NCBI GenBank assembly: GCA_963733915.1
Contig: CAVTEP010000001.1
Coordinates: 671,710 to 735,709 of the forward strand
Direction: 5' to 3'
Source: Candidatus Sulfomarinibacteraceae bacterium
Lineage (GTDB): Bacteria; Acidobacteriota; Thermoanaerobaculia; Thermoanaerobaculales; Sulfomarinibacteraceae
DNA: 64,000 nucleotides
Made by a program: the position numbers and the translations under genes. The notes below the pieces were generated by a model. The model ran no database searches, was not told the DNA's origin, and saw only the letters and a program-made list of their open reading frames with translations. Every line of letters starts with the position of its first letter. Within the stretch, counting starts at the first letter, position 1. Below, in pieces: positions 1-64,000 of the stretch.

Positions 1-169
1 AGTCCTGGAGCTTCGTTTTGGTCTGAGTGATGACCAGCCGAAGACATTGCGGGAAATCGGCGAAACAATGGACCTGTCGAGGGAGAGGGTGCGGCAGATT
101 GAAAGCCGAGCGCTCAACAAGCTCAGACGTTCGCACAAGAAGCACTCGTTGAAGGGATTCCTACGTTAA
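1..169 (+). CDS. Sigma-70 family RNA polymerase sigma factor, C-terminal fragment (region 4.2); 5' part outside the window
   Basis: Reading from nt 2: [55 protein letters not shown], stop TAA 167-169. This is the canonical region 4.2 HTH pattern of RpoD/RpoS-type sigmas. Confidence 0.85.
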
Positions 170-207
170 CAAATCGTTAGAACGTTTGAACGTTCAAACG
201 TTTGAAC
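164..207. repeat. E1: AACGTT-unit palindromic repeat between convergent sigma and RDD genes
   Basis: cgttaacaaatcgttagaacgtttgaacgttcaaacgtttgaac. Positions 181-202 (aacgtttgaacgttcaaacgtt) are a perfect palindrome. The element contains both flanking stop codons (167-169 and 194-196). Confidence 0.85.
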
Positions 208-739
208 CTTCGTCATCAGTGTCGGGTTCCGGCTCGATCGGAGATCCGCGTCGAGTCCGACGCACCACCCGCGTGCCGGCCAGGATATCGTGAAGAGCCC
301 TGCGGTCGACCCGTAGGAGGACCAGCAGATGACCCCACTCGAGGGTCACAGAGCTGACACAGTAAGCGGCCAAACGAAGCATCCCTCGAGCCGGACCTAT
401 CGGACATCGTTGACGGTAGTCCGTGATCCGGATACCCATGGCCCATTTACCGGGCGTCGCTCCGAGCAGGCCCCACCCAACCACGAAGTAACACCACCAG
501 AGTGCGATCCAAAGGCCGAGGATGCCGCTGGCGTGGGCCAGCCAGAGGGGTTCAGATGCCGCGCTGGCGAGCTTATCGATGCCGCCCCACGCGGCGCTCC
601 AGTCGAAACGCCGCCAGACCGGCATCGCCATCAGCGCACACAGGCTGCAGTACATCGCCATGTCGAGGAGGGTCGCAACCAGCCGCGATGAGGCGCCGGC
701 CGGTCGCCAACCGTCGGCAAAGTCAAGACGGCGCGGCAC
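194..739 (-). CDS. RDD family membrane protein
   Basis: ORF track 194..781. Motifs RLVATLLDMAM, GATPGKWAMGIRI and RRALHDILAGTRVV plus hydrophobic segments fit the RDD family. I prefer the in-frame GTG at 739-737, which overlaps the upstream TAG (TAGTG), over the GTG at 781. The C-terminal EGSNV* is encoded inside repeat E1. Confidence 0.7.
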   Translation of the reverse strand: MPRRLDFADGWRPAGASSRLVATLLDMAMYCSLCALMAMPVWRRFDWSAAWGGIDKLASAASEPLWLAHASGILGLWIALWWCYFVVGWGLLGATPGKWAMGIRITDYRQRCPIGPARGMLRLAAYCVSSVTLEWGHLLVLLRVDRRALHDILAGTRVVRRTRRGSPIEPEPDTDDEGSNV

Positions 740-2376
740 TACAGCGGGGTGAGCCCGCCACTCTGCTGGTGGGCGAGCCACAGGCCTGAGTACGAGTGGA
801 GAAATCGAAAACGCGACCGATAGACGTGTTCGAGCTGATTGGTGTCACCGCGGAAAACCATGTCATCGATGAACCACTGAAAACGGCGATCGGTGTCCCT
901 GGCCCTGTCGAGGCTGCCGGCGGAGTGCTCGAGAACCTCATACAAACGGTCGGCGTTGTCAGCGTTTTCAAGACGCGTGATCTCCCGTGTTTCATCCTCC
1001 ATCTTGACCCGCAAGGCAGCGCTCATGAGAAAGAATCGGTCCAACTCCCATTCGGCGCTACCCTTCTCGACCTTGCCCTCGGCGAGCTTTCGGTAAACCG
1101 CGATTTCCTTCGCTTCGAGTTTCAGGTTGCGGATCTCCGGCGCGTTCGTGATCTGGGTTGGCAAACGGTCCCACACGACCATCTCGAGCGCAAACATGAT
1201 CTTGTGCAGGGTCTCATTGAGGAGTGGATCGGGCGGAAGAAGATCGGTGAGAGAAGCGGTTTCGCGAGACTCCCTGGTCCCGTTTTCCGCCGCCGAGGTC
1301 TCCGGATTCAAAGCGGTGTCGGAGATCTTGTGGGACGCGGTGGGCGCACGGTCCGAGACCGCGGCCGGGTCCTTGGTCGATCCCAGAGGCCGTTTGGAGG
1401 TTGGATCGAACTGGTTGAGCACTGCGTGCATCGCGCGCGTCATTTCGGCGATATCGTCCCGCTTGACGTTGTCCTTTCGCACCCTCGCCTCGTAGCGCAC
1501 CCGAATCGTACGGAACTCCTCGATCTGTCGCCTGAGCTCGTCGGTTGCGAGTTCCGGGTGGCGGTCGAGGTAACGTTCGATATCGAAGATCCGATTGGTG
1601 TTTTCGATGACCTTGTTCTCTTCGGCTTCGAACAATTCCTTGAACCGGTTCTTGGCGACGATATTGGTCGTCGTGATTTCCACCAACATCGAAGCGTGGA
1701 GGGCGGTTTTTCCGAGTCGCTGTTTGAGCCGGCGGTATCTCTCGTAGACTTTCGACTCGACGAGGGTCTTGTAGTCCACGATGGACTCGAGTTCCCGCCT
1801 GATGGCCCTCACCGCCTCGAGGAGGGCCGTTTCCTCGGCGGAAGGCAGAAGCGGCAAGTCAGTAAGCTCGCTCAGACGCTTGAAATTCGAGGCGAGATCG
1901 GCCTGGTCGCGGGGGGAGATTCGCTCGTCTTCTGACGGTGCCTCGGCGAGACGCGTAAAGAGTATGTCGAGCTTGTCGAGGGTATCCTGCTCGAAATGGT
2001 TCGAGAGCAGATAAAACTTGAGGAGCGCGGAAAGGACCTTTTCGTCTTGCCGTTTGATGTGATCGAAAAACTTTCGCATCACCGACGGAGGGAATTGGCA
2101 CTCGATCTTATCGAGCTCGCGGTGAATCCGGTCCAACTCCCGTTCGATCTGGTCCAGGTCCGGGGTCGCGTCGACCGTGGATTCGACCCCAATTTTGTGG
2201 ACCAACTCCTTGAGCCGGCGATGCAGCGAATGGAAGTCGTAGCTGTACGGCATGGGGCCTTCGTCCAGATGCTTGAGAACGCCTCCGAGGAACTGGTAGA
2301 AGGTCCACTGAGACCTGAAGCGATCGGACAATGTGGTATACCGAGCGCTCGAGGACTGCACCTTATGAGTCTCCAT
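739..2376 (-). CDS. Hypothetical protein, 545 aa, apparently helical/coiled-coil with a central low-complexity linker; no family recognised
   Basis: Long ORF with GC3-rich codon usage and ATG start. The + strand ORF 796..1935 is a shadow frame. Co-directional with, and abutting, the RDD gene. Confidence 0.6.
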   Translation of the reverse strand: METHKVQSSSARYTTLSDRFRSQWTFYQFLGGVLKHLDEGPMPYSYDFHSLHRRLKELVHKIGVESTVDATPDLDQIERELDRIHRELDKIECQFPPSVMRKFFDHIKRQDEKVLSALLKFYLLSNHFEQDTLDKLDILFTRLAEAPSEDERISPRDQADLASNFKRLSELTDLPLLPSAEETALLEAVRAIRRELESIVDYKTLVESKVYERYRRLKQRLGKTALHASMLVEITTTNIVAKNRFKELFEAEENKVIENTNRIFDIERYLDRHPELATDELRRQIEEFRTIRVRYEARVRKDNVKRDDIAEMTRAMHAVLNQFDPTSKRPLGSTKDPAAVSDRAPTASHKISDTALNPETSAAENGTRESRETASLTDLLPPDPLLNETLHKIMFALEMVVWDRLPTQITNAPEIRNLKLEAKEIAVYRKLAEGKVEKGSAEWELDRFFLMSAALRVKMEDETREITRLENADNADRLYEVLEHSAGSLDRARDTDRRFQWFIDDMVFRGDTNQLEHVYRSRFRFLHSYSGLWLAHQQSGGLTPL

Positions 2377-2422
2377 ATCACCTTAGGATACACCGACTTG
2401 CAATGACCGACAACGTGGGAGT

Positions 2423-5025: not shown

Positions 5026-5045
5026 GCTGACCAACCGGCCGACGA

Positions 5046-5106
5046 CACCCACCCAACCGAAGAAACGCAAAGTCGCAAAGGCGCAACGACGCAAAGACGC
5101 AAAGGG
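5046..5106. repeat. E2: half element - C-rich clamp (cacccacccaacc) followed by tandem CGCAAAG-type units
   Basis: cacccacccaacc (5046-5058), then aaacgcaaagtcgcaaaggcgcaacgacgcaaagacgcaaaggg (5063-5106). No clear G-rich or complementary partner was seen. Lies in a convergent gap. Confidence 0.6.
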
Positions 5107-5145
5107 CTCGTCGCCAAGACCAATCGAGAATGTTCCCAAGGTGCT

Positions 5146-7277: not shown

Positions 7278-9784
7278 CACGTGGTTTGCTACCTCGACAG
7301 CTCCCGTTGTTTCTGGTCCGCATCGGCCGCCTCTATCCGCGGGCGGTTGCCGCCGGTGCAATCCTGGCCTGGATCGTGGCTGGTCTGCTTGCCTCGCGAG
7401 TCCACATCGAGACCGACATCCTCTCATTGGTGCCCCGTGACAACCCGGTGGTCGAGGGCTTCAAGACCACCGTCGAACGATTCGGTTCGGTGGACACGCT
7501 TCTTGTCGTGGTTCACCTCGAGCCCGAAAGGGCGCTCGAAAGCTCGATAGACTTTGCCGATCGGCTGACCGAAAACCTGCGCAGCTGGGAGGACATCGAC
7601 TGGGTCGAGTACCGGGTCGACACTTCCGCCGAGGCAGCTGTTCCGCTGCTCGACCGGGTAACACTGTTTCTCGAGCCGGAGGAGCTGGACGAGGTTCTGG
7701 CGGGATTTGACGACGACGGCCTCGAGGCGAATGCCGTCCGGCTGCGTTCTCAGCTGATGGCGCCCCAGAGCCTGGTCACCAAGGACGTGCTGCGACTCGA
7801 CCCGGCGGGTCTCCTGCCGCGGATCTTGGCAAAAATCCGGTTTGGAGGCGTCGGTGTCGGGGTTGATCCCGATACAGGCTGCCTCATCGACCCCGGGGGA
7901 AAGCTCCTGCTGCTGATGGCAAAACCCGCTCGCCCGGCCCAGGACCTCGAGTTCGACCGCCGGCTGGTGGCGGCCCTGAACGACCGGGTGGCTGCGGTGT
8001 CCGAGGCGTGGATGGAAGAAAACGGAGAGACGGCGGCGCCGGCTGTCGAGTTCACCGGTGGCTATGTGGTTGCGCTCGACGACGCCAAGCTCATCACGTC
8101 GGACATGTTGGTCGGGCTCGTGTCATCCTTGCTCGGGGTCATGGTTCTGTTTCTGCTCGCTTTCCGAAGCCGTGCAGCTCTGGTTTACGCGTTCTTCCCG
8201 CTGGTGACGGGCATCGCGCTCACATTCTCTTTCGGGGCGCTCGTTCTCGGACGGATCAACTCCCTGACCTCGGCCTTTGGCGGGCTTGTTATCGGTCTCG
8301 GCATCGACTTCGTGATCGTGCTCTATGCACGGTATATCGAGGAACGCCAATCGGGAGCGTCCCATGATGACGCGGTGGATGCCATGGGCCGCCACACAGG
8401 GGTCGGAGTGCTGCTTGGCGCGGTGACGACAGCCGCTACCTTCTACTCGTTTTTGATCACAGATTTCGCGGGTCTGTGGGAACTCGGGCTCCTGACCGGC
8501 TCCGGGATCCTCCTGCTGGTGGTAACCGTCTACCTCATGCTGCCGGCCCTTTTGACCCTCGTCCAGCAAAGAGTCCGGCGCGACCGCCCGTTGCACCTGC
8601 GATCGTTTGGCGCCGATCATCTGTGCCGCGCGAGCCTCCTGAAACCGCGCGCGACCATCGCCGTCGCCGCAGTGATCACGGTGGCCCTGGGTGTTGGTAT
8701 CCGCGGACTCCGCTGGGACGACGACTTCAGAAACATGCGGTCGGGAGACAACCGCGCTATCCAGCTCCGGCAAGAGGTGATGGACGCTTTTGGCCTCCGG
8801 TTTTCGCCGATGGTGCTTCGATTCGACGGCATCGACGAGGGAGATGCTCTGGCCAAATGCCGCACCATCCTGCCGGAGCTCGAACGACTTGTGGACGGCG
8901 AAAACCTGGTTGACGTTGACACGATCGCCGGCGTGATACCGACACCGGAAACCCAACGTACGCTCATCGCGCGCCTTGAAAAAGCGGCGCCGTCGCTCGA
9001 CGGACTTGCGGGACGCTTCGATGATGCACTCCGCGCCGAGGGTCTCAACCCGGCAGCTTTTCGCGAGGGCATCGACCATTTGACGGTAGCGCTCGAACGG
9101 CGCCAACCGCTATCGCTCGCTGACCTCGATGGAACCCCGCTGGCACGGGTGGTCGACCGTTACGTGGCGGTGGCTGACAACGAGGTGTCTGCGGCCATCT
9201 ACTGCTATCCGCCGGTCGGTGAATGGCGTCGCGGCGCCTCACCCGCGCTCGCTGAGGTCCTGGCGAGGTATCCGGATGCGGTCCTCTCGGGGCCGAACAT
9301 CATCTCGGCGGAGCTCCGTGAGATCGTCTGGGACGATGCTATCGCCGCTGCGGTGCTCGGCATCGTGGTTGTTTTCATTCTGATGTGGGCCGACCTCGGT
9401 TCTCCATTGCGCGCGTTGCTCGCGCTCTTACCGCTGTTTGTCGGCATGGTGTGGATGCTCGGCGCGATGGCTATTCTCGGTCTCCGGCTCAACTTCTTCA
9501 ACATCTTCGTGGTGACGATGATTATCGGCATCGGCGTCGACTACGGGGTGCATTTTCTACACCGATGGTATGAGTCAGGAGGCGATCAGGCGGCGGTGGC
9601 CGCGACCGCAAAAGCGATCGCAGTTGCCGCCCTGACAACCATGGTCGGCTTCGGGTCGCTCGTGATCTCGCATTATCCGGGCTTGCGATCGGTTGGCGGC
9701 GCTGCGATTCTCGGGGCGTTGTCGACAGCCGTGCTTGGTATCACCCTGCTTCCGGCGCTGCTTTCAAGGAAGGACGTTTCATGA
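7274..9784 (+). CDS. MMPL/RND-superfamily membrane transporter (HpnN-like)
   Basis: ORF track 7193..9784. The in-frame GTG at 7274 overlaps the pgsA stop (GTGA). Two 6-TM bundles carry GLGIDFVIVLYARYIEE and GIGVDYGVHFLHRWYE motifs, separated by large periplasmic domains. Confidence 0.8.
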   Translation: MTRGLLPRQLPLFLVRIGRLYPRAVAAGAILAWIVAGLLASRVHIETDILSLVPRDNPVVEGFKTTVERFGSVDTLLVVVHLEPERALESSIDFADRLTENLRSWEDIDWVEYRVDTSAEAAVPLLDRVTLFLEPEELDEVLAGFDDDGLEANAVRLRSQLMAPQSLVTKDVLRLDPAGLLPRILAKIRFGGVGVGVDPDTGCLIDPGGKLLLLMAKPARPAQDLEFDRRLVAALNDRVAAVSEAWMEENGETAAPAVEFTGGYVVALDDAKLITSDMLVGLVSSLLGVMVLFLLAFRSRAALVYAFFPLVTGIALTFSFGALVLGRINSLTSAFGGLVIGLGIDFVIVLYARYIEERQSGASHDDAVDAMGRHTGVGVLLGAVTTAATFYSFLITDFAGLWELGLLTGSGILLLVVTVYLMLPALLTLVQQRVRRDRPLHLRSFGADHLCRASLLKPRATIAVAAVITVALGVGIRGLRWDDDFRNMRSGDNRAIQLRQEVMDAFGLRFSPMVLRFDGIDEGDALAKCRTILPELERLVDGENLVDVDTIAGVIPTPETQRTLIARLEKAAPSLDGLAGRFDDALRAEGLNPAAFREGIDHLTVALERRQPLSLADLDGTPLARVVDRYVAVADNEVSAAIYCYPPVGEWRRGASPALAEVLARYPDAVLSGPNIISAELREIVWDDAIAAAVLGIVVVFILMWADLGSPLRALLALLPLFVGMVWMLGAMAILGLRLNFFNIFVVTMIIGIGVDYGVHFLHRWYESGGDQAAVAATAKAIAVAALTTMVGFGSLVISHYPGLRSVGGAAILGALSTAVLGITLLPALLSRKDVS

Positions 9785-13295: not shown

Positions 13296-13413
13296 GAGTT
13301 GTAGAGTTTTGGGTTTTGAGTTATGAGTTCCTCCCGCCCGACCCCGAAGGACTCCCTATTCGGGGGGAGGGTTGGGTGGCAACTCAAAACTCAAAACTAT
13401 GAACTCAAAACTC
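13296..13413. repeat. E4: STR-armed GC-clamped hairpin, GAGTTTT-type arms
   Basis: Left arm gagttgtagagttttgggttttgagttatgagtt (13296-13329). Core cctcccgcccgacccc..loop..ggggggagggttgggtgg (13330-13379). Right arm aactcaaaactcaaaactatgaactcaaaactc (13381-13413). Confidence 0.85.
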
Positions 13414-13545
13414 TGCAGCGTTGCAATCCTCGGCCGGGTGCTCTAGCCTGACGGGGACCGGTGGCGGCGTCGTTGCCGTAATCCGGGAGCGGGCCGATGC
13501 GCCGGGGGTCGCCCCGGCATTTTGTCATCCGGCAAGGTGGAGTGA

Positions 13546-17808: not shown

Positions 17809-17811
17809 GTC

Positions 17812-17917
17812 GAATTCTCAGGTCTCAATTCTCAATTTTGAATTCCCTCCTCTCTTCGACTTCTGGGGGTGGGTCGGGGCAATTGAAAATTGAGAACTCA
17901 AAATTAAGAATTGAAAG
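17812..17917. repeat. E5: STR-armed GC-clamped hairpin, GAATTCT/CAATTCT-type arms
   Basis: Left arm gaattctcaggtctcaattctcaattttgaatt (17812-17844). Core ccctcctctc..ttcgacttct..gggggtgggtcgggg. Right arm caattgaaaattgagaactcaaaattaagaattgaaag (17880-17917). Confidence 0.88.
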
Positions 17918-17946
17918 GCCTTAGCCCCTCTGCTATCCTCCGCCCC

Positions 17947-18990
17947 ATGAAAAAAGCCCTGATCACCGGCATTACCGGCCAGGACGGCTCGTATCTCGCG
18001 GAGTTGCTGCTCGCCAAGGAATACGAGGTCCACGGTCTGGTCCGGCGCTCCTCGACCTTCAACCGCAGCCGCATCGACCACCTGAGGAAGGCGTCTCTCG
18101 GAGACCGCCACGTACGTCTCCACTATGGCGATCTCGGCGACGCCGAGTCGCTGACGACCGTGCTGCGACTGGTGAGCCCGGACGAGATTTACAACCTCGC
18201 CGCCCAGTCCCACGTCGGCATCTCGTTTTCGATGCCCACCTATACCGGCGACGTTTCCGGTCTCGGAGCCGTGCGACTGCTCGAGGCTGTGCGACAGGTC
18301 GCACCCGAGGCACGGTTTTACCAGGCGTCGTCGTCCGAGCTCTTTGGCAAAGCGAAAGAGGTGCCGCAGAACGAGTCGACGTCCTTCCACCCGCGCTCAC
18401 CGTATGCGGTGGCCAAACTCTACAGCTTCTGGGCTGCCGTCAACTACCGAGAGGCCCACGGGTTGTTTGCAGCCAACGGGATCCTTTTCAACCACGAGTC
18501 GCCTCGGCGTGGAGAAAATTTCGTGACCCGCAAGATCACCCGCGCGGTGGCTGAGATCGCGGGCGGTCAGCGAGACCGGGTGTCCCTCGGAAATCTCGAC
18601 GCCCGCCGCGACTGGGGTTTTGCCGGCGACTTCGTTGATGCGATGTGGCGAATCGTGCAGACGGACGAACCGGACGACTGGGTCGTCGGTACAGGCGAGG
18701 AACACTCGGTACGCGAATTCTGCGAGCACGCCTTCGCCCACGTCGGCATTGAATTGGAGTGGGCAGGTAGCGGGATCGACGAGGTGGGCCGGGACCGTTC
18801 GACCGGCGCCACGCGGGTGGTGGTGAACTCGCGGTACTTCCGGCCGGCAGAGGTCGATCGATTGCTGTCGGATGCCGCAAAGGCGCGCCGCGAGCTTGGT
18901 TGGGAGCCGAAGGTCGGATTTGAGGAGCTGGTACGGATGATGGTTGACGCCGACCTCGAAGCGGTCGGCGCGACCACGCTAGAACGTTAG
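17947..18990 (+). CDS. gmd: GDP-mannose 4,6-dehydratase
   Basis: ORF track 17911..18990; ATG at 17947 gives [22 protein letters not shown]. Also SSELFGK, YAVAKLY and [17 protein letters not shown]. The last residues TTLER* are encoded in the left arm of E6. Confidence 0.93.
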
Positions 18991-19106
18991 AACGTTGGAA
19001 CGTCACACGTTAGAACGATTTCAAGTTGGACGGCCGGGTCTCCGCCGGACGTGCTCCGGTTGGGTTGGCCGAACGTGTTAACGTTTTAGCGTTGAACGTT
19101 TTAACG
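18979..19106. repeat. E6: STR-armed hairpin, AACGTT-type arms
   Basis: Left arm ctagaacgttagaacgttggaacgtcacacgttagaacg (18979-19017). The GC-rich core includes ggttgggttgg. Right arm gaacgtgttaacgttttagcgttgaacgttttaacg (19071-19106). The gmd stop lies in the left arm. Confidence 0.8.
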
Positions 19107-19160
19107 ACGCTTGTTTTGGCCGTGAGGTCGTCATAGCATTGCGAAGCGTGGAGGCAGCGG

Positions 19161-20804: not shown

Positions 20805-20869
20805 AAAGTGCATTTGCCACCTCGTCGGACCATGAGTACTACGTTACAAACGGATGCAGGGGAGTGGAT

Positions 20870-20983
20870 GAGATATGAGTTTCGAGTTTTGAGTTTTGAG
20901 TTTTGAGTTGCGCGTTGCTCGACCCAACAGGATTGGGTTGGGTGAGGGATAACTAAAAACTCAAAACTAAGAACTCAAAACTG
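20870..20983. repeat. E7: STR-armed GC-clamped hairpin, GAGTTTT-type arms
   Basis: Left arm gagatatgagtttcgagttttgagttttgagttttgagtt (20870-20909). Core gacccaac..aggat..tgggttgggtgaggg. Right arm ataactaaaaactcaaaactaagaactcaaaactg (20949-20983). Confidence 0.88.
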
Positions 20984-20996
20984 ATGCTGATTACGT

Positions 20997-22745: not shown

Positions 22746-22768
22746 TACTGTTTCCAGAAAAAATTCGA

Positions 22769-22793
22769 GCCCGGGCTTCGGCCCGGGCTTTTT
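22769..22793 (+). terminator. Canonical rho-independent terminator downstream of the OmpA-family gene
   Basis: gcccgggc (22769-22776), loop ttcg, gcccgggc (22781-22788), then ttttt (22789-22793). It lies 24 nt after the stop codon. Confidence 0.8.
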
Positions 22794-22796
22794 CGT

Positions 22797-22912: not shown

Positions 22913-22954
22913 ATTCACTCCCTGGCGACCCTGTATGCTTCCGCGGGAGGTATC

Positions 22955-42513: not shown

Positions 42514-42563
42514 CAACGTTCAAACGTTCAAACGTTCAAACGTTAAGACGTTATAACGTTAAA
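42514..42563. repeat. E16: tandem AACGTT-unit array (6 hexamers), direct-repeat form
   Basis: caacgttcaaacgttcaaacgttcaaacgttaagacgttataacgttaaa. It starts 1 nt after the DUF362 gene stop. Confidence 0.8.
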
Positions 42564-42591
42564 TATTGTGCTGCTGGCTCGGCTATGATTC

Positions 42592-44118: not shown

Positions 44119-44121
44119 GCC

Positions 44122-44243
44122 CCATCCACCCACCCTTCCGCGAAAAGGAGAAAAGGAGAAAAGGAGAAAAGGAGAGGGGGAGAGGGAGCAGAGGCTGGGA
44201 AAGGGGAGGGTGGGTGGTCTCCTCTTCGCCTTTTCCCCTTTTC
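44122..44243. repeat. E17: element with interleaved order: C clamp, (GAAAAGGA)x4 arm, G clamp, complementary ccttttcc arm
   Basis: ccatccacccaccc (44122-44135). gaaaaggagaaaaggagaaaaggagaaaaggaga (44142-44175). ggggagggtgggtgg (44203-44217). tctcctcttcgccttttccccttttc (44218-44243). Confidence 0.8.
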
Positions 44244-44294
44244 ATTTATGCGATTCGAACATCCAAATCCAAACGCTTGCGCTACACTCGGCCG

Positions 44295-44789
44295 GTGACA
44301 TCCAAGAGAATCGTGCAGGTTGGGCTTCTGATTGCGGTCATCGTGGTCGTGCTTGCGGTGCGCCATTATTTTTCGCCGGGAGAGGTCGTGAGGCGGCAGC
44401 TCGTTGCCACCATCAACGCATTCGAAGACGAACGGATGCTGGCCGTGATGTCGGCGATCTCCCGCTCCTACTCTGACCCCTGGGGTCTGGATTACGAAAC
44501 CCTGGCCGGTGTTCTGCACGAGCTGATGGATACCTATGACGATCTCCAGGTGGACCTCGTTTTCGACAAGCCCGAGGTTGGGGAGGACGGGGTTCGGATC
44601 GGTTTCCAGTTTGTCCTCTGGGGCAGTGACCAGGGAACTCGGGGCTACATTGTCGGGAGCCTGTCAGCGCCGTGCACTGCGGTTCTCGTGTGGCGCAAGG
44701 AACAGCCCGGTTGGCGGCTGGCGTCGACCGCCGAGCTCGATATCCCCGAGCTTCGCAATGAGCTTGAGGCGATGCGCAATCACCATTAG
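44295..44789 (+). CDS. Hypothetical signal-anchored protein (~164 aa)
   Basis: This is the 3' part of ORF 43656..44789. The upstream part overlaps glgA and repeat E17 and is rejected. The GTG at 44295 gives MTSKRIVQVGLLIAVIVVVLAV (charged n-region plus TM). The stop TAG is at the edge of E18. Confidence 0.5.
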   Translation: MTSKRIVQVGLLIAVIVVVLAVRHYFSPGEVVRRQLVATINAFEDERMLAVMSAISRSYSDPWGLDYETLAGVLHELMDTYDDLQVDLVFDKPEVGEDGVRIGFQFVLWGSDQGTRGYIVGSLSAPCTAVLVWRKEQPGWRLASTAELDIPELRNELEAMRNHH

Positions 44790-45194
44790 AACGTGTGAAC
44801 GTTCAAACGTTAGTACGTTCCACCCGCCCACCCTCAGGAGGCAGAGGGGAAAAGTGGAAAAGGGGAAAAGGGGAAAAGGAGCCATCGCAGATTTCAATTT
44901 CGGATTTTCCGCCCAAATCTCCCCGAAGCTGTGGGACCCGTCCGATAAACCGTCGATCAGGGGCAGCGGCACGAACAGCGACAGCGGCTGGAGACCGCGT
45001 CAGGGGCAGTCCACAGCGACAACATTTTGAAAGACCGATTCGAACTGCACCGGTCGCTGCCGCGGTCGTTGCTCTCTAGCCCCGCCTCTGCGGTCTGTCG
45101 CTGTCCCTGACCGCCGTTGCAACGAATGGCACCAACGACTTTATGGGGGGAGGGTGGCCCCCTTTTCTCCTTTTCCCCTTTTCTCCTTTTCTCC
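44785..45194 (-). repeat. E18: composite element (~410 bp) in inverted orientation relative to E10/E14, with GGAAAAG / CTTTTCC arms flanking the inner module
   Basis: attagaacgtgtgaacgttcaaacgttagtacgtt (44785-44819). ccacccgcccaccc (44820-44833). (ggaaaag)n at 44848-44880. Module ~44960-45115. ggggggagggtgg (45145-45157). cccccttttctccttttccccttttctccttttctcc (45158-45194). Confidence 0.85.
44960..45115 (-). repeat. GC-rich inner module, copy D (reverse orientation)
   Basis: On the + strand: ggggcagcggc..ggctggagaccgcgtcaggggcagtccacagcgac..gctctctagccccgcctctgcggtctgtcgctgtccctgaccgcc. This is the reverse complement of the blocks conserved in copies A-C. Confidence 0.75.
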
Positions 45195-46238
45195 TCAGGC
45201 ACGCATGCTCTTCGCCGTGATCTCGATCGCTCGCGCGATGTCCTCATCGCTAATGTGATAGTGCGTCACCATCCGGATGCTGTCGCCCCCGAGGGGGTGA
45301 CAGAGCACGCCGTCGCCGGCGAGGCGTGAGGCAAGCGCTGCGGCGTCCAAATCTGAGCTTGGTGCCAGCGAAAAGAAGACGATGTTGGTTTCGACCGTGT
45401 CCGGGTCGAGGACCACGCCGGGGATCTCGGCCAGCCCGACGGCGAGCTCGTGCGCACGACGATTGTCCTCACCGAGCAGGGGCAGCACCTCCTCGAGCGC
45501 CACCAACCCGGCGGCGGCGATGACCCCGACCTGGCGCATGCCGCCACCGAACATCTTGCGGATGCGGCGCGCCTCGATGATGGCGTCGGCGTCGCCGACG
45601 AGGAGTGAACCGACCGGTGCGCCGAGCCCCTTGGAAAGACAGAACATGATTGTGTCGCAGCCGGCGCCGAGCTCGGCCGCCGAGACGCCGAGCGCCGCCG
45701 CCGCGTTGTGGATTCGGGCCCCGTCGAGGTGAACCGGAAGGTGGTGACGACGGGCAACGCCGATAAGCTCGTTCATCCGAGCCGGCGGTGTGACGTGACC
45801 GCCGGCGAGGTTGTGGCTGTTTTCGAGGACCACCAGCGAAGTCGGCGTCCGGTATCCGGTCCGAGGCTGAATCGCTCTCTCCAACTGCTCCGGGCTGATG
45901 ATTCCGTCGTCGGTCGGGATCGGACGTGGGAGAGCCCCGGAAAGGGCCGCCATCGCGCCCATCTCGAAGTTGAACACGTGGGCGCCCGCCTCTCCGACCA
46001 CCTCTGATCCGGGGTGGGTGTGGAGGTGGATGGCGATTTGATTGCCCATCGTGCCGGTCGGTACGAAGACTGCCGCCTCTCGCCCCATGAGCTCCGCAGC
46101 CCGCTCCTCAAGGCGGTTGACGGTCGGATCCTCGCCGTAGACATCGTCACCGACCTCGGCCCTCGACATGGCCCGGCGCATGCTGTCCGTGGGATGTGTT
46201 ACCGTGTCGGATCGCAAGTCGATCAGGGGTTTGTTCAT
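45195..46238 (-). CDS. ltaE: Low-specificity L-threonine aldolase (PLP-dependent)
   Basis: [19 protein letters not shown]...[16 protein letters not shown]...[13 protein letters not shown]...[12 protein letters not shown]. Confidence 0.9.
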
Positions 46239-53951: not shown

Positions 53952-53954
53952 AAT

Positions 53955-54059
53955 GAATTCTCAATTCTCAATTCTCAATTTTGAATTACCCATTCTCACC
54001 GGAAAAATCGGGGAGGATGGAAGGGAATTGAGAACTGAGAATTCAAAACTGAGAACTGG
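53955..54059. repeat. E19: STR-armed GC-clamped hairpin, GAATTCT/CAATTCT-type arms, directly after actF
   Basis: Left arm gaattctcaattctcaattctcaattttgaatt (53955-53987). Core acccattctcacc..ggaaaaatc..ggggaggatggaaggg. Right arm aattgagaactgagaattcaaaactgagaactgg (54026-54059). Confidence 0.88.
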
Positions 54060-54067
54060 AGTTTCCG

Positions 54068-54382: not shown

Positions 54383-54532
54383 GAATTCTGAATTAGGAAT
54401 TGGGAACTCCCATCCGCCCCCCCAGTGAAATCGTCCTGTTCAGGGGGTGGGAGGGCGGCATTCCTAATTCCTCATTCCTAATTCCTAACTCCTGACTCCT
54501 CTTTGCTCATTCTTCCCCCTAATTCCTCATCC
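54383..54532. repeat. E20: STR-armed GC-clamped hairpin, GAATTAGG-type arms (right arm longer than left)
   Basis: Left arm gaattctgaattaggaattgggaact (54383-54408). Core cccatccgccccccc..loop..gggggtgggagggcgg (54443-54458). Right arm cattcctaattcctcattcctaattcctaactcctgactcc (54459-54499), plus ctaattcctcatcc (54519-54532). Confidence 0.85.
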
Positions 54533-56043: not shown

Positions 56044-56069
56044 CCACGAGGCCGGTCATACCTGAGTGT

Positions 56070-56185
56070 CAATTAGGAATTAGGAATGAGGAATTAGGAA
56101 TGCCGCCCACCTCCCCTGGTTATCAACCGAGAGAGGGAGGTTGGAGGGGAATTCCTAATTCCTAATTCCTAATTCCTAAATTCTC
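56070..56185. repeat. E21: STR-armed GC-clamped hairpin, GAATTAGG-type arms; best-paired example
   Basis: Left arm caattaggaattaggaatgaggaattaggaatg (56070-56102). ccgcccacctcccc (56103-56116). Loop tggttatcaaccgagaga. gggaggttggagggg (56135-56149). Right arm aattcctaattcctaattcctaattcctaaattctc (56150-56185). The reverse complement of the left arm matches the right arm with 2-3 mismatches by eye. Confidence 0.9.
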
Positions 56186-56188
56186 GAT

Positions 56189-59415: not shown

Positions 59416-60183
59416 CTACGAGAAAACGGCCGTCAGGCCGGCCTTGGCGACCACCCACACAATCCACGGCACCAGGACCACCGCCGCTGCCTTGCCGCGG
59501 GAGAGCTTGCCGACGGCCGCGAATCCGATGATCAGGAGGATGACGGCCCAGATGTTGAAAACGCTGAGGGTGCCGGCGGCGGCCGACAGCCAGGCCGGCG
59601 CATCGGACGATAGAAATGCGCCGAGGTTTGCCTTGACGACGTGGGCAAGATCGTCCTGTGGCACCTTCCCGACCCTCTGCACCAGAACGGCCGTCAACGC
59701 CAGCTGGACGAGGGTTGGCGGCCAGTAACCGTGGAGGGTTGTCGACATCGCTCGCGGATAGTCGGCGTCCGAGCTCACCAGCTTGAGCATCAGAAAGAAC
59801 ACGGCGCCCATGATGACCCAGGCGATGGGCCCCACCACGAATGTGATGACCGGACCGAACTTGCTGAACTTCTCGGCCTGCTCGACCGCGTTTTCCATCT
59901 GGGCTTCGCTCAAATCTCGTCCTCTGGCCTCGAGACGGGCGCGGAGGGTGGCCTCGGTGTCGACATGGGGCATGATCACGACTTGCGCAGCGACCATCAA
60001 GATCACCATCACAGCCATGACGAGAAGCCAGGTCGGTTTGACCCCGATGTCCGAAAAAACCTCCCCGGGCGAGGTGAACATCATCCACAACCGCTGGACC
60101 GCCGAGTACTTCGGTTGCAGTGACGGCGTCGGCGGTTGCGCCAACTCGGGTTCGTATGACGGACGATCCGTGGCCTCATCCAT
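59416..60183 (-). CDS. Yip1-domain membrane protein
   Basis: 255 aa with 5 TM segments. The N-terminal QRLWMMFTSPGEVFSDIGVKPTWLLVMAVMVIL pattern is typical of the Yip1/DUF1282 family. Confidence 0.6.
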   Translation of the reverse strand: MDEATDRPSYEPELAQPPTPSLQPKYSAVQRLWMMFTSPGEVFSDIGVKPTWLLVMAVMVILMVAAQVVIMPHVDTEATLRARLEARGRDLSEAQMENAVEQAEKFSKFGPVITFVVGPIAWVIMGAVFFLMLKLVSSDADYPRAMSTTLHGYWPPTLVQLALTAVLVQRVGKVPQDDLAHVVKANLGAFLSSDAPAWLSAAAGTLSVFNIWAVILLIIGFAAVGKLSRGKAAAVVLVPWIVWVVAKAGLTAVFS

Positions 60184-60230
60184 GGTTTACCCCCTCGTTC
60201 GTATTTGTACTTCGCTGCGGGGATTATATT

Positions 60231-60279
60231 CCGGAAATCCGCATCCGAATCCGGAATCGGATTCGGATACGGATTTCGG
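60231..60279. repeat. E22: near-perfect hairpin of AAATCCG/CCGAATC-type units in a divergent promoter gap
   Basis: ccggaaatccgcatccgaatccg (60231-60253), loop gaat, cggattcggatacggatttcgg (60258-60279). One mismatch by eye. Confidence 0.85.
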
Positions 60280-60301
60280 GATTTGCTACCCTGCATCCCG
60301 C

Positions 60302-61768
60302 ATGAACGAGGGGGGATTCTTTTCGCGCATCGTCGCGGGCATCCTGGTGGTGGTCGCGGGAAGTGGTCTTGCGCCTGCCGGAGACGACGAGTCGGTTGCG
60401 GAGCTGGTCACCAGGGTGGGTCGGGCGCGGTGGACTCACGACAACTCGGTGAGGTTGTTGGTCAACCCGGTCGAGGCGTGGCAGGCGCGGGTCGAGCTGG
60501 CGAACAACGCCCGCCATCACATCCTGATCTCGTTGTTCTCGTGGCACAACGACGAGTATGGCAAGGATTACCGCCGCATTCTGATCGGCGCCCTCGAGCG
60601 ACAAAAGGCCGCGGGCGGAGATCTCACGCTCAGGGTGTTGGCGGACGCTTCGGCGTTGTTCCAGTTCAGTAGGGCATTTTCGACGCTGGAGCGACAGGGC
60701 GCGAAGGTGCGTGGATTCAACCGCAGCTCGTGGGGTCTGACCCCCGTGTATGACGGGCGGATGCACGACAAGATGTTCATCGCCGACGGCCGATCCGCCA
60801 TCGTCAGCGGGCGCAATATCGCCGACGATTACTTCAACCCCAGGAGGTGGTGGCTGGATCTCGGCGTCAGGCTCGAGGGCCCTGCGGTCGACGACCTCCA
60901 GATGATCTTCCTCAAATCCTGGGAGTTCACCGAGTTCAACCGCAAGGCGGGCCGCTTTCTCATGCCGCAGGAGGAGCTCGTCAAGGAGCTCCGGGTATTC
61001 TGGCAGACCGGTCGTTTTCCGAACGGCAAGAGCCCGCTCGAGCGGTTCGTGACCCCTGAGTACTTCCCGGTCCGGACGGAGCCGGCCGGTACGATACCGG
61101 TGGCGATTCTCTACGACAACCCGTTTATCAGGCGGCGTGCGGCGACGACCGATCTGGTGATCGCGCTGGCCGGAAAGGCGAGCGATCGAATCGACATTAT
61201 GACGCCGTTCCCCAACTTCGACCCAACGCTCACCGATGCATTGGCCGCCGCGGCCGGCCGCGGCGTCGCGGTGCGGCTGTTCGTGAACGACCGTGAGGCG
61301 GCGATCCGCGCCGGCCCTTTCCTGCTTGCCGGCTACCCAACCCTGATACGCCTCATCGAGGCGGGGGCGGAGGTCTGGGCGTGGCGTGCCAACGACGCCT
61401 CGCTGCGACAGATGGAGGAGGGCGGTTGCGCGCCGGAAATCATGCCGCCGATCGCCATCCACGGCAAGATGGTGCTGGTGGACGACGATCTGTCGATCAT
61501 CCACTCGTCGAACTTCAACATCCGGTCGACCTACTACAACACCGAGGCCGGGGTGGCGGTCCTCGACCGCGAATTGAACCGGGAGTTGACCGAGCTGCTT
61601 GCCGGTCTGATCGAATTTCGTGACGGACCGAAGCAATGCGTTGGCGGTAGCGGTATCGAGGATATTCCGGACCTGATGCACCTTTTGGGGCCGGATGATC
61701 TGCCGCGGATGCGCGAAGAGCTGGGCGGTAAGCAGCCTTTCCTCGATGCCTGGGGCGTGACCTGGTGA
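60302..61768 (+). CDS. Phospholipase D family protein (two HKD motifs; cardiolipin synthase-like), secreted or anchored
   Basis: This is the 3' part of ORF 59783..61768; the ATG at 60302 gives MNEGGFFSRIVAGILVVVAGSGLA. HKD1: MHDKMFIADGRSAIVSGRNI. HKD2: IHGKMVLVDDDLSIIHSSNFNIRS. Confidence 0.82.
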   Translation: MNEGGFFSRIVAGILVVVAGSGLAPAGDDESVAELVTRVGRARWTHDNSVRLLVNPVEAWQARVELANNARHHILISLFSWHNDEYGKDYRRILIGALERQKAAGGDLTLRVLADASALFQFSRAFSTLERQGAKVRGFNRSSWGLTPVYDGRMHDKMFIADGRSAIVSGRNIADDYFNPRRWWLDLGVRLEGPAVDDLQMIFLKSWEFTEFNRKAGRFLMPQEELVKELRVFWQTGRFPNGKSPLERFVTPEYFPVRTEPAGTIPVAILYDNPFIRRRAATTDLVIALAGKASDRIDIMTPFPNFDPTLTDALAAAAGRGVAVRLFVNDREAAIRAGPFLLAGYPTLIRLIEAGAEVWAWRANDASLRQMEEGGCAPEIMPPIAIHGKMVLVDDDLSIIHSSNFNIRSTYYNTEAGVAVLDRELNRELTELLAGLIEFRDGPKQCVGGSGIEDIPDLMHLLGPDDLPRMREELGGKQPFLDAWGVTW

Positions 61769-62379
61769 TCGGCGGTTTTACCTGGCTGAAGGTCACGATC
61801 ATGGTGATGCTGATCATGGCGACCGTGACCGCGCGGGCTGATGACGGGATCGACCTCGATCGCTGGCACGACGAGCTGCGGGCTGCCATCGGCGAGGATC
61901 CGCAGGTAGACGAGGATCGCCGACCGTCCCTCGGGATTTACCCGAGCCTCGGTGTGGCGGCCGGGCCGCCGAACTGGGTGGCCGCCCAGGCCAACGCCTA
62001 CCTGTCGTTTTCCGACGGGCGGCGGTTCTCGCTTTATGCCGGCTATGGAGAGGAGTGGGGCCCGCAGGCCGACTCTCAAATCATCACCCTCGGGTGGGGA
62101 GGCGTGAGGCGGATCCCGGCCGCCTCGAAGCAGCTCGGGTTTCACGGCAAGTACCTCCGTTACCGGCGTTGGAACGAAGAAGACCACGGTGTCCACCACG
62201 GGCTTTCGTTCGGCACCGAGAGCGGGGTCGGGTGGGGAGGGCTGTCCTTCGAGGTAGGAGCGGCAAGGTCCGAGCAGAACCACTGGTTGATCACCCTCGA
62301 GATAGCCCTCAAGTTTGCCACACCGGTGCACATCCCTTTGAAGAAAATGCCAACCTCGCCAGCCGAACCCAATTCTTAG
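61765..62379 (+). CDS. Hypothetical secreted protein, possibly beta-rich or outer-membrane; translationally coupled to the PLD gene
   Basis: The GTG start overlaps the PLD stop (GTGA). Signal-like KVTIMVMLIMATVTARA. Gly/Trp-rich segments (ITLGWGGVRR, SGVGWGGLSFEVG). The stop TAG and the final residues PNS* lie in the left arm of E23. Confidence 0.5.
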   Translation: MIGGFTWLKVTIMVMLIMATVTARADDGIDLDRWHDELRAAIGEDPQVDEDRRPSLGIYPSLGVAAGPPNWVAAQANAYLSFSDGRRFSLYAGYGEEWGPQADSQIITLGWGGVRRIPAASKQLGFHGKYLRYRRWNEEDHGVHHGLSFGTESGVGWGGLSFEVGAARSEQNHWLITLEIALKFATPVHIPLKKMPTSPAEPNS

Positions 62380-62475
62380 TTCTCAGTTCTCAATTCTCAA
62401 TTCCCAACCACCTCCCCTATGTTTTTGTGGGAGGGTGGTGAATTAAAAATTAAGAATTGAAAATTGAGAATTCGG
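62371..62475. repeat. E23: STR-armed GC-clamped hairpin, CAATTCT-type arms
   Basis: Left arm aattcttagttctcagttctcaattctcaattc (62371-62403). ccaaccacctcccc. Loop tatgtttttgt. gggagggtggtg (62429-62440). Right arm aattaaaaattaagaattgaaaattgagaattcgg (62441-62475). Confidence 0.88.
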
Positions 62476-62512
62476 ACATCCATTCGCGCACCGAATTCTG
62501 TAGACTCACCCG

Positions 62513-62923
62513 GTGTTCCTCCGCCTCCTCCTGCTCTTCACCATCGTGCCGCTGGTGGAGCTCTTTCTTCTGGTCAAGCTGGGTTCGGTGATCGGGTTGG
62601 GCGCGACGATCCTGATCGTGATCTGTACCGGGGCCCTCGGGGCCTGGCTCGCGCGGCGCCAGGGGTTGGGAGTGCTCAAACGGATCAGCGAAGATTTTTC
62701 CGCCGGAAGGCTGCCGGCCGACGCGCTCGTCGACGGGCTGCTCATTCTCATCGCCGGAGCGGTGCTGCTGACGCCCGGCCTCATCACGGACGCGTTGGGT
62801 TTCCTGCTCCTGGTTCCCCGTGGACGGGCCGTGATTCGCAAAGCGGTCACGGAGCGGCTGGCGCGGCGCCTGGGCGACCGTCAACCGGCAGTCATCGACG
62901 CCCGCTGGCGGCGCGACGATTGA
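62513..62923 (+). CDS. fxsA: FxsA family membrane protein
   Basis: MFLRLLLLFTIVPLVELFLLVKLGSVIG...LLTPGLITDALGFLLLVPRGRAVIRK matches the FxsA pattern. Confidence 0.85.
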   Translation: MFLRLLLLFTIVPLVELFLLVKLGSVIGLGATILIVICTGALGAWLARRQGLGVLKRISEDFSAGRLPADALVDGLLILIAGAVLLTPGLITDALGFLLLVPRGRAVIRKAVTERLARRLGDRQPAVIDARWRRDD

Positions 62924-62967
62924 CCGGGCTTTGAGCCGACCGAGTCGAGGTACAATCGACGGCCAGG

Positions 62968-63972
62968 ATGAGAGACAAGGACTTGAATATCGAGGCCTAC
63001 GAGGTCATGGCTGAGATGCTTGTCACTGTCCGCAGAATCGTCCATCGCGGCCTCGAGAAGGCAACCGGGAAGACCTGGTACCTCGACGGTTGCCCGACCG
63101 GTGTCTACGAGCGGCTCGTCGATCGCAAGGAAAACGAGGTCGCCGTCGACCGATTCGACCGCGAGTACCAGGAGCTCATCAGCTTTGCGTCCCTCGACGA
63201 TCTGGCCGAGATCATCGAGTTCAACACGGATCTCGCGCAACTCCTCGAAGCCATCGCCCCCGAAGGTTCGACAGTGGCCGAACGGTTGCGCGAAATCGAG
63301 AGCCTTCGGCTCAAGCTCGCGGCAACGGTTCCGCTCGATGAAAGCGACGTCGAGAAACTGCTCTCGTTCCACGCCGACTTTCGTGAGTCACTGACCCGGA
63401 AGAAGAAGCCTGCAACCCCGCCAACCGGGGCCGCTCCTTCCGAAGCCGCCGAAGTCGGAGCCGGAGTGGAGGGGCCGAAGGCCGTTGAATTCGGGACCCG
63501 CGCCACCGACATCGAAGAGCTGGCGGCGGAGGACATCGTGACCGAGGTGGCGTCGGAGAAACCGGTAGCGGCGGTTGCTGACGCGACCCCTGCCGCAACC
63601 GACGAGCGGGTGGTCGGAGCGATGCCGGAGCTTGCCGTCGAGGCGGAACGGGCAATGGCGATCGAAGACGACCACGAGGTGTTGCAGATCCTTCGGCGAG
63701 AGGTCATGTCTCTGGCGGAAGACATGTTCAGGGCCAAGACCGATCGCGACCGCCCGGTTTGGCAGACCCTGCGCTCGAGCGGGTGGTACGACATCAAGAA
63801 GAGCGCTCTCGGGATCGAGGCGATCGAGAGATTCTATGCGGTGGCCGATCAGGCCAGGGAAAAGGCCGCCGCCGGCGGCGATGCCCAGGCCATCAGGGCG
63901 ATTCTCGACGAGGCCGGGTTCTCGAAGCTGCTGCTGTCGCTGCGCGAGATGTTTATGAAGCACGAGCTTTAG
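62968..63972 (+). CDS. Hypothetical protein; the N-terminal ~110 aa resemble a Swt1-like HEPN domain (tentative), followed by an acidic/Ala-rich linker and a helical C-terminal domain
   Basis: VRRIVHRGLEKATGKTWYLDGCPTGVYERLVDRKENE...LISFASLDDLAEIIEFN resembles the HEPN_Swt1 pattern (from memory, unverified). Confidence 0.45.
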   Translation: MRDKDLNIEAYEVMAEMLVTVRRIVHRGLEKATGKTWYLDGCPTGVYERLVDRKENEVAVDRFDREYQELISFASLDDLAEIIEFNTDLAQLLEAIAPEGSTVAERLREIESLRLKLAATVPLDESDVEKLLSFHADFRESLTRKKKPATPPTGAAPSEAAEVGAGVEGPKAVEFGTRATDIEELAAEDIVTEVASEKPVAAVADATPAATDERVVGAMPELAVEAERAMAIEDDHEVLQILRREVMSLAEDMFRAKTDRDRPVWQTLRSSGWYDIKKSALGIEAIERFYAVADQAREKAAAGGDAQAIRAILDEAGFSKLLLSLREMFMKHEL

Positions 63973-64000
63973 TTCAATTTCGGATTTCGAATTTCGGATT
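63970..64000. repeat. E24: start of another element (TTTCGGA/AAATCCG-type arm), truncated by the window end
   Basis: tagttcaatttcggatttcgaatttcggatt. It begins at the stop codon of the last gene and is the reverse complement of the AAATCCG unit used in E13 and E15. Confidence 0.6.

Follow-up and report, generated by a model that had tools for sequence, protein, structure and literature searches.

What are the AT-rich tandem-repeat hairpins that stand between the genes of a GC-rich stretch of acidobacterial DNA, and what do they do there? The stretch, 64 kb from the genome of a Candidatus Sulfomarinibacteraceae bacterium and called the window from here on, carries ordinary housekeeping genes, among them secA, guaB, gmd, and the genes for a formiminotransferase-cyclodeaminase, an OPT transporter and glycogen synthase; its SecA is 79% identical to that of uncultured Holophagae/Acidobacteriota known from metagenome-assembled genomes. 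We compared it with loci fetched from metagenome assemblies (the L-numbers below), and consider the chances about even that the hairpins are a clade-specific, fast-evolving family of non-coding palindromic repeats acting as RNA hairpins in the position of terminators, the function at the RNA level being what we infer.

An earlier note on this DNA had counted 24 such loci making up about 5% of the window; the recount gave 23 loci with a total of about 3.4 kb, which is 5.3%. Tandem Repeats Finder (TRF) reported 37 non-overlapping arrays, 19 of period 7 and 18 of period 8, all of them intergenic or overlapping a stop codon, and an inverted-repeat scan found for most of these a partner array of reverse-complement sequence 30–60 nt away (280–320 nt in four cases). 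The two scans together recovered all seven loci that had been listed as clean, and further loci besides. The arms have a GC content of 25–38%, against 63% for the window. Both the G-rich block GGGTGGGTGG (37 occurrences with at most one mismatch, 5.45 expected) and the hexamer AACGTT (45 occurrences, 10.3 expected, 42 of the 45 within arrays) are strongly enriched. Where two arrays of 6–9-nt units that are not self-complementary lie at most 450 nt apart in the window, they are inverted in 13 pairs and direct in none.

The window contains no tRNA, no rRNA and no Rfam match: the Rfam covariance models, run over the whole window at gathering score, gave 0 matches, and at E ≤ 1 only generic models of long hairpins (miRNA precursors of plants and animals) and small RNAs resembling terminators came up, far under threshold. 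We found no prior account of the elements in Acidobacteria in the open-access literature, which need not mean that none exists.

The module that recurs is made up of a G-block and, 3' of it, an array, 5'-GGGTGGGTGG-[unit]n-3'; its reverse complement is [unit']n-CCACCCACCC. Two modules face to face make an element of about 110 bp, either strand of which gives a hairpin of roughly 34–48 bp (median about 45) with an outer stem of about 34 nt of AT-rich repeat and an inner clamp that is C-rich on its 5' side and G-rich on its 3' side. The order of parts given in the earlier note (arm, C-block, loop, G-block, complementary arm) was correct, and its prediction of a hairpin of about 100 nt held against shuffled controls, the clean loci folding with z values of −2.3 to −9.8 as RNA and of −2.4 to about −10.6 as DNA. 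The single-arm loci at 5040–5110 and 44124–44246 folded as RNA no better than shuffles. The loop, put at 8–18 nt, had to be revised, the predicted terminal loops being 3–11 nt long; so had the view that the arms are specific to each locus, without a family consensus. About six families of units recur, namely GAGTTTT/AAAACTC, AATTCTC/GAGAATT, AACGTTNN, AATTAGG/CCTAATT, AAATCCG/CGGATTT and GGAAAAGG/CCTTTTCC. The AATTCTC-type copies at 17812, 53955 and 62370 can be aligned from one end to the other and share GAATTC at the two termini, and the order of variant units is common to the non-orthologous copies at 17812 and 53955. Paralogues of the same family are 72–79% identical across the whole element.

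Arms built from 7-mers have 4.9 copies or 34.3 nt, and arms built from 8-mers 4.2 copies or 33.0 nt (standard deviation about 6 nt); the constraint is on the length of the stem and not on the number of units. The clamp polarity, scored on the innermost 12 pairs of folded hairpins, is 5'-CCACCC...GGGTGG-3' in 16 of the 16 folded hairpins of this clade; in tandem-armed hairpins of other lineages (n = 17) it is mixed. The palindrome being identical on both strands, the polarity is uninformative as to the strand that is used. Its uniformity is a real asymmetry, which requires either common descent or recognition of the stem-loop.

These regularities bear on the proposal that the elements are a by-product of mutation, ordinary terminator hairpins having been extended by slippage of 7–8-nt units and made symmetric by intrastrand template switching, with no mobility and no role for the repeats. 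Heptamer repeats are a frequent class of long bacterial simple sequence repeats (SSRs), in many bacteria the commonest one (PMC4679880), and inverted heptamer arrays with unrelated units are present in many lineages; both points speak for such a process. However, slippage alone fails to account for arms of about 34 nt with both 7-mers and 8-mers, and it leaves unexplained the invariant clamp polarity and the variant-unit order shared by the copies at 17812 and 53955. The comparison of relatives, described below, bears on this proposal again.

Where do the elements stand with respect to genes? With gaps classified from a gene map based on the GC content of third codon positions (GC3), and co-directional gaps counted if longer than 40 nt, elements were found in 6 of the 7 convergent gaps, in about 14 of the 20 co-directional ones and in 2 of the 8 divergent ones. 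The bias towards gene 3' ends seen in the earlier note is real; its claim that almost every inter-operon gap is filled was somewhat overstated, since 20 of the 27 gaps with a gene 3' end (about 74%) hold an element. That only two loci lie in purely divergent gaps was borne out (36210–36421 and, after genes had been called anew, 60184–60300). In co-directional gaps the elements adjoin or overlap the upstream stop codon (median distance 1–3 nt) and leave about 40 nt (median) to the next start; this remaining stretch frequently opens with an extended −10-like motif. Terminators consisting of a stem plus a U-tract are not enriched in the DNA scanned over shuffled sequence (16 versus 14.3 expected; 19 versus 13.1). 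The sole convincing canonical one in the 40 kb scanned is the bidirectional terminator CCCGGGCTTCGGCCCGGG at 22764–22792 (A-tract, CCCGGGC-TTCG-GCCCGGG, T-tract), which lies 3' of an OmpA-family gene and is kept in L001, L085 and L087.

The relatives examined at the same sites were L001, which is syntenic at about 75% amino-acid identity, L084 and L085/L086, whose gmd genes are 99% and 94% identical to that of the window, and L087–L090, four population variants of one relative with gmd 86% identical. The same gaps hold elements in these relatives, which differ in unit family, copy number or core content. The gap between guaB and gmd is the best example: it has AATTCTC arms in the window, GAGTTTT arms in L084 and L085, GC-rich CAGGGAG heptamer arms in L001, a stem of about 14 bp without repeats, which extends to about 17 pairs, in L087 and a plain 22-bp GC hairpin in L002. 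All guaB 3' hairpins (from six related lineages) begin right after the stop codon, with z values of −2.3 to −6.8. At this site the structure is conserved and the sequence is not, and that a hairpin is always present points to selection for structure rather than to chance occupancy.

Between the window and L084 the flanks of the guaB–gmd element are 99–100% identical at the nucleotide level, while the element itself differs at about 42% of its positions and the next element, 1 kb away, is 94.5% identical. The difference is thus a replacement confined to the element. [quoted passage not shown] The family consensus with shared termini, the clamp polarity of 16 out of 16, as for a recognition site or common descent, and the core nested in loops and polymorphic between the window and L085 (see below) fit this equally, as does the finding that elsewhere a small PF05635 gene has inverted heptamer arrays on both sides, much as a mini-element has its ends. 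What makes us regard it as unlikely is that no direct repeat of at least 4 nt, as left by target-site duplication, borders any of 10 elements (3-nt chance matches in 3 of 10), that the best paralogues are 79% identical, that the window and about 150 kb from relatives of the clade contain neither a transposase nor a PF05635 gene (no transposase-like domain in the 20 window proteins scanned), and that the guaB 3' site always has some long hairpin, including the non-repeat ones of L002 and L087.

The same comparisons also speak for the mutational by-product. The sites that differ in the guaB–gmd swap are the same three in every unit, and the two versions have the innermost unit in common; L084 and L085 differ by gaps of exactly 7 and 14 nt, which are whole units; copy number is polymorphic; and the elements evolve about 10 times faster than their flanks. 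L087 and L089 are 99.8% identical over 15.7 kb, with only two indels, both in arrays, and about 6 of their 14 single-nucleotide differences in elements. Yet the 42% divergence of one element between flanks of 99–100% identity, with the next element 94.5% identical, and the nested conserved core are not explained by slippage alone, and we consider the by-product view quite unlikely. Alignment of the orthologous elements between gmd and the formiminotransferase-cyclodeaminase gene (ftcd) was disturbed by register slippage and copy-number change; they were not used for covariation.

Within the formiminotransferase gene, L090 departs from L087 by about 12% along one tract (L087 11218–12114), which starts inside the 3' arm of the gmd–ftcd hairpin; in the 9 kb upstream of the tract there are 5 differences only. 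The recombination breakpoint therefore coincides with the element. Upstream of the OPT gene the window has a composite of AACGTT arms plus core, L085 a short GAGTTTT hairpin and L087 the array [CAGAGGGG]x12.

The [CAGAGGGG] array 5' of the OPT gene has 12 copies in L087 (17554–17649) and L088, and about 7 in L089 (12165–12225). Next to it L089 is without 29 nt that include a −10-like motif, which is either promoter-proximal repeat variation or a misassembly.

This deletion beside an array is suspicious, and short tandem repeats and palindromes are error-prone, so that the assembly or sequencing artefact considered in the earlier note deserves mention. The same elements were found at the same sites in the independent assemblies L084, L085/L086 and L087–L090, which come from different samples; the elements are therefore no assembly artefact. 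Since, moreover, each family is consistent in itself and has a precise placement with respect to stop codons, we regard an artefact as next to impossible.

Mosaic or partial variants had been described beside the clean loci. Four loci proved to be composites of about 370–410 nt with a conserved GC-rich core of about 250 nt between the arms; the copies lie at 25679–25925 (plus strand), 33040–33305 (plus), 34884–35136 (plus) and 44880–45160 (minus), and in L085 at about 8150–8520. The core, which forms a long imperfect hairpin of its own and in every case lies nested within the loop of a repeat-armed element, is characterized by an invariant box, CTGYGGACTGCCCCTGRMGCG, and by defined ends, GGCTCRTCYGGA ... 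TTYGTGGAGGGGTGGGTGG. At the site downstream of the OmpA-family gene, the short AACGTT hairpin of the window corresponds in L085 to the same arms enclosing a core of about 400 nt. The core has no Rfam match and no coding signal, and a metagenome scan for the box CTGYGGACTGCCCCTGRMGCG returned just three chance matches, in coding regions. The idea that the core is a decayed PF05635 gene was dropped, as a hidden Markov model (HMM) search of its six-frame translations gave no similarity.

The elements occupy the space that separates a stop codon from the promoter following it, or two convergent genes from each other, and we propose that the symmetric hairpin of about 45 bp, once transcribed, would most likely mark the 3' end of a transcript coming from either side. 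It may do so as a terminator-like block to read-through, as a barrier to 3' exonucleases or as a processing site for RNase III, any of which would insulate neighbouring operons. The arms would arise, grow, shrink and homogenize through slipped-strand events in whole units, and since it is the hairpin that counts, their complementarity would be maintained; whole elements may be exchanged or replaced at fixed sites by a mechanism that we can only infer, and the second, GC-rich element of about 250 nt could nest in the loop. Among the functions left open in the earlier note, the comparative evidence favours a terminator or insulator or a 3' stabilizer, and a slippage hotspot is also supported.

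Several observations weigh against our proposal. No U-tract follows the stems of the elements, and the terminator scan misses them except for partial matches in CCTTTTCT arms (at 25905 and 45145); the elements are therefore not canonical intrinsic terminators. At 22764–22914 one of them stands directly behind an intact canonical terminator and is therefore not "the" terminator there. In a comparison of G:U versus A:C pairs and of the folding energies of the two strands, made on 30 elements whose transcriptional context is known, about six loci came out each way, so that there is no consistent sense-strand bias in G:U pairs and no direct signature of selection on the transcribed RNA. AT-rich arms are not the expected product of selection for stability alone in a genome of 63% GC. 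Two elements lie in divergent gaps, and several arrays adjoin −10 elements or start codons. No near-identical paralogues are present in the sampled DNA, the best pair being 79% identical, and there is thus no evidence of recent transposition within it; with paralogues at or below 79% and neither target-site duplication nor transposase seen, mobility comes down to one swap and one presence/absence polymorphism of the core. Finally, repeat copy numbers in the metagenome-assembled relatives are possibly misassembled and are to be read with caution.

Some of these points agree with a third alternative, action at the level of DNA. The arrays or clamps would bind an oligomeric protein (nucleoid-associated or gyrase/IHF-like, as at bacterial interspersed mosaic elements, BIMEs, or a transcription factor), or serve as AT-rich UP-like elements, or extrude as cruciforms driven by supercoiling, and so insulate domains or set promoter strength. 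The arrays are AT-rich, sharply unlike the genome, and a few unit sequences recur; the DNA strands fold well, too, and G:U pairs show no sense-strand bias; two elements lie in divergent promoter gaps. In addition, an extended −10-like motif, TGCTAYMCT, follows directly 3' of arrays at 17925–17933 and 60287–60295 and, as reverse complement, at 25627–25636 and 36218–36227. But at one and the same site the units give way to others of unrelated sequence, which argues against sequence-specific binding, the GC-rich centre disfavours nucleation of a cruciform, and neither the strong 3'-end bias nor the overlap with stop codons is predicted by a promoter role. Action at the DNA level is in our opinion improbable.

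The TGCTAYMCT motif, which is also found in L087 at about 17540, lies just 7–35 nt from start codons, for example from the gmd ATG at 17947; this spacing suggests very short leaders or leaderless mRNAs, and the last repeat unit may supply the −35/UP region.

The 23 loci are given here in their order along the window; those named without a strand were assigned none. A self-complementary array of AACGTT-type 8-mers (164–215; TRF; −12.5 kcal/mol, z −1.8) and a half element in which the C-block CACCCACCCAACC precedes [ACGCAAAG]x5 (5040–5110; TRF; z +1.7) both lie in convergent gaps. The GAGTTTT/AAAACTC-type hairpin at 13296–13417 (RNA z −7.7, DNA z −7.6) follows 67 nt 3' of the upstream stop. The guaB–gmd gap is filled by the AATTCTC/GAGAATT-type hairpin at 17810–17930, whose place is taken by the GAGTTTT type in L084 and L085, and the 5' arm of the next, an AACGTT-type 8-mer hairpin at 18976–19108 (z −3.7) kept in L084–L087, overlaps the gmd stop. 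Located 3' of the formiminotransferase-cyclodeaminase gene is a GAGTTTT-type hairpin at 20868–20985 (RNA z −9.8), the L085 orthologue of which has other copy numbers. The AACGTT-type hairpin at 22795–22914 (z −7.7), core-bearing in L085, is the one that adjoins the canonical terminator, and a self-complementary AACGTT-type array found by TRF occupies a convergent gap at 23450–23500. At 25636–26008 (plus strand) a composite combines AACGTT arms and core with a G-block plus CCTTTTCT array and a G-block plus AACGTTCT arm (z −7.4 on the plus and −8.5 on the minus strand).

The 8-mer hairpin [ACAAAGNC] / [CTTCGTGG] at 28950–29050, between two minus-strand genes, folds better on the minus (z −5.3) than on the plus strand (z −2.5); a short AACGTT-type palindrome marks a gene boundary at 30715–30760 (z −3.6). 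Two further core-bearing loci are on the plus strand: 32976–33348, which consists of C-block, 12-mer repeats, core and G-block plus [AAATCCG]x4 and ends at the start codon of the next gene, and 34850–35230, in a convergent gap. The divergent gap at 36220–36458 contains a long-spacer pair, [GAATTAG/GAATTGG] plus C-block and G-block plus [ATTCCGA] (z −2.7). An AACGTT-type array begins at the upstream stop codon at 42510–42565 (z −3.1); C-block plus [GAAAAGGA]x4 and G-block plus [CCTTTTCC] (44119–44246; z +0.7) begin at the glycogen synthase stop; and the composite at 44787–45198, in a convergent gap, has its core in minus orientation and is assigned to that strand. The AATTCTC type recurs at 53953–54060, 1 nt past a stop codon (z −5.8), and at 62368–62476, where it overlaps the upstream stop codon (z −6.3). 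Between these two lie an AATTAGG/ATTCCTA-type hairpin with extended 3' array (54383–54530; z −4.8), an AATTAGG/CCTAATT-type hairpin in a convergent gap with 94% complementarity (56068–56186; RNA z −9.3, DNA z −10.6) and an AATCCG/CGGATT hairpin in a divergent gap, between TATAAT on the minus strand and the extended −10 element TGCTACCCT on the plus strand (60225–60285; z −6.5). The [ATTTCGG] array found by TRF at 63965–64000 is clipped by the window end.

The elements also affect the reading of genes. Most unit families have a stop codon (TGA, TAG or TAA) per 7–8 nt, for example at 13304–13329, 17881–17916, 22797–22832 and 56071–56101, and all three frames are therefore closed inside three units, which does not hold for the GGAAAAGG and AAATCCG families. 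The array [GAAAAGGA]n can also be read as a repeated Shine-Dalgarno-like AAGGAG. Open reading frame (ORF) finders and public gene calls run into the arrays, starts being placed inside 3' arms and C-termini extended through stop-free heptamers, so that protein lengths are inflated (window 17911–18990; P0006 with 378 amino acids versus P0001 with 347; PF05635 matches of 139–158 amino acids). The plus-strand ORF 59783–61768 is really two divergent genes, one for a Yip1-domain protein at 59416–60183 (minus) and one for a PLD-domain protein at 60302–61768 (plus, ATG at 60302), and the hairpin 60225–60285 stands between their −10 elements. About 20 nt 5' of the secA start there is a conserved GC hairpin with T-tract (GCCGGGG...CCCCGGC ATTTTG) in the window (13501–13527), L002 (9965–9990) and L087 (5543–5570), which may be a leader or attenuator element.

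Are inverted heptamer arrays confined to this clade? A wider set, taken from the surroundings of secA in other Acidobacteriota, Nitrospirota, Desulfuromonadota and Dormibacterota, comprised 80 loci with a total of 1.54 Mb; in it, neighbouring arrays of 6–9-nt units were inverted in 21 cases and direct in 1, with units unrelated to those of the window. The Pyrinomonadaceae locus L041 (19594–19771) has a larger palindrome of the same design, [AGTGATG]x9 facing [TCACTCA]x15 with 11 nt between the arms.

Only three genes of the family PF05635 (23S_rRNA_IVP), whose product is the four-helix-bundle protein of 23S rRNA intervening sequences and is related to bAvd, were found in 1.7 Mb: at L061 15723–16157, L037 4302–4705 and L071 6340–6790 (minus strand), each between inverted heptamer arrays (CGAGTGG/CCACTCG, CGTAAGG/CCTCACG and AGTGGCT/CACTAGC) and in loci that are tight between housekeeping genes. 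A phmmer search of all six-frame ORFs of the window and 91 loci matched L061, L037 and L071 only, and the window itself has no PF05635 gene. Two further lineages with the gene at the same site, between a hexapeptide-protein gene and hisS, have the same arrays (L092–L108), so that inverted arrays flank every PF05635 gene found in the fetched loci.

One could imagine from this a cross-phylum class of elements resembling intervening sequences (IVSs), in which the heptamer arms would be recognition or processing arrays for pentameric PF05635/bAvd-like proteins. ORF-bearing copies (23S rRNA IVSs and the insertion between the hexapeptide-protein gene and hisS) would be autonomous, and ORF-less copies would have multiplied in the acidobacterial clade and taken on a terminator or insulator role. 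We offer this as a speculation of low probability. If true, it would give a function to both the enigmatic PF05635 family and the bacterial heptamer repeats; the inverted heptamer arrays beside PF05635 genes are in any case a concrete and testable lead on that protein family.

Although heptamer tandem repeats (long SSRs and the cyanobacterial STRRs described below) and 23S rRNA intervening sequences became known more than 30 years ago, no function or origin has, to our knowledge, been accepted for them. The acidobacterial clade has an unusually dense and orderly version, which takes up about 5% of the DNA, keeps to a defined position after stop codons, has arms of fixed length and a clamp of fixed polarity, and can be seen to turn over between near-identical strains. 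Should the elements be the lineage's main transcript-end signals, they would exemplify how operons are delimited in a GC-rich bacterium that has few canonical terminators and would be a source of portable bidirectional insulator parts; gene callers and terminator predictors, which now extend ORFs into the arrays, would then have to model them.

How do the elements compare with known systems? The earlier note had held that their architecture is not that of REP/BIME, ERIC, BOX, RUP, Correia/NEMIS or SMAG elements, which implied a lack of precedent. In support of the note there is neither an Rfam match nor a GTAG/CGTC head; against the implied lack of precedent, heptamer hairpins have precedents in cyanobacteria (PMC2670836) and in Coxiella (PMC4990558). 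The cyanobacterial short tandemly repeated repetitive sequences (STRRs) are 7-bp intergenic repeats reported to form hairpins, for example upstream of hupS-hupL and of hoxW; roles in transcript stability, termination and translational coupling have been proposed, their function still being unknown (PMC2670836). The window elements likewise consist of intergenic tandem heptamers with several unit families per genome. They differ in their acidobacterial host, in that 8-mers are as common as 7-mers, probably in that the arrays are almost always inverted arms of about 34 nt around a conserved CCACCC/GGGTGG clamp of fixed polarity, in their density (5% of the DNA, about 74% of the 3'-end gaps), and in having nested cores and cassette replacement. 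The units GAGTTTT, AATTCTC, AACGTTCT, AATTAGG, AAATCCG and GGAAAAGG are presumably also unlike the consensus units of STRR1–3 of heterocystous cyanobacteria.

The 23S rRNA IVS of Coxiella carries a PF05635-type ORF and has a stem with tandem GACAGAT heptamers, the number of which varies between strains; RNase III cuts the stem (PMC4990558). Terminal inverted repeats and a long stem with tandem heptamers are shared by the window elements, whose stems have 34–48 pairs, and PF05635 genes outside rRNA, too, are flanked by inverted heptamer arrays (L061, L037, L071, L092–L108). The window elements, however, lie between protein-coding genes and not in helix 25 or 45 of a 23S rRNA, are without a PF05635 ORF or a detectable remnant of one, are far more numerous and have a GC clamp that is specific to the clade.

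With REPs and BIMEs the elements share that they are interspersed extragenic palindromes after genes or between convergent genes, combined into mosaics and variable between strains, for which 3' stabilization of mRNA, termination and DNA topology have been proposed as roles. The defining feature of a REP is a GTAG or CGTC head on an imperfect palindrome of 20–40 bp (PMC3733652); of 10 window elements examined, 2 have GTAG or CGTC near the head and 1 has the symmetric motif at the tail. The arms are tandem 7–8-nt units rather than a single palindrome of 20–40 bp, the stems are much longer and AT-rich, and the organism has no known RAYT (TnpA-REP) gene.

Intrinsic bidirectional terminators are similar in their position after stop codons or between convergent genes and in their GC-rich central stem-loop; being symmetric, the elements could act both ways, and in L002 an ordinary GC hairpin fills the slot held by an element in the window. 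The differences are the missing U-tract, stems of about 45 bp that are several times longer, and the one element behind a true terminator.

Bacterial MITEs (Correia/NEMIS, ERIC, RUP) are short, non-coding, palindromic and interspersed, have a family consensus and are polymorphic in presence or type; they can supply terminators, promoters or RNase III sites. The window elements have neither target-site duplications nor near-identical copies nor a known cognate insertion sequence, and the whole element is a hairpin of tandem units, not unique sequence between short terminal inverted repeats.

The elements are thus not members of the REPs, IVSs, canonical terminators or classical MITEs. By analogy they appear to work like REPs/BIMEs or bidirectional terminators and to look like STRR hairpins and IVS stems. 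They are a variant of the interspersed intergenic elements made of palindromes and short tandem repeats, notable for its density, its regularities and its dynamics at the level of strains.

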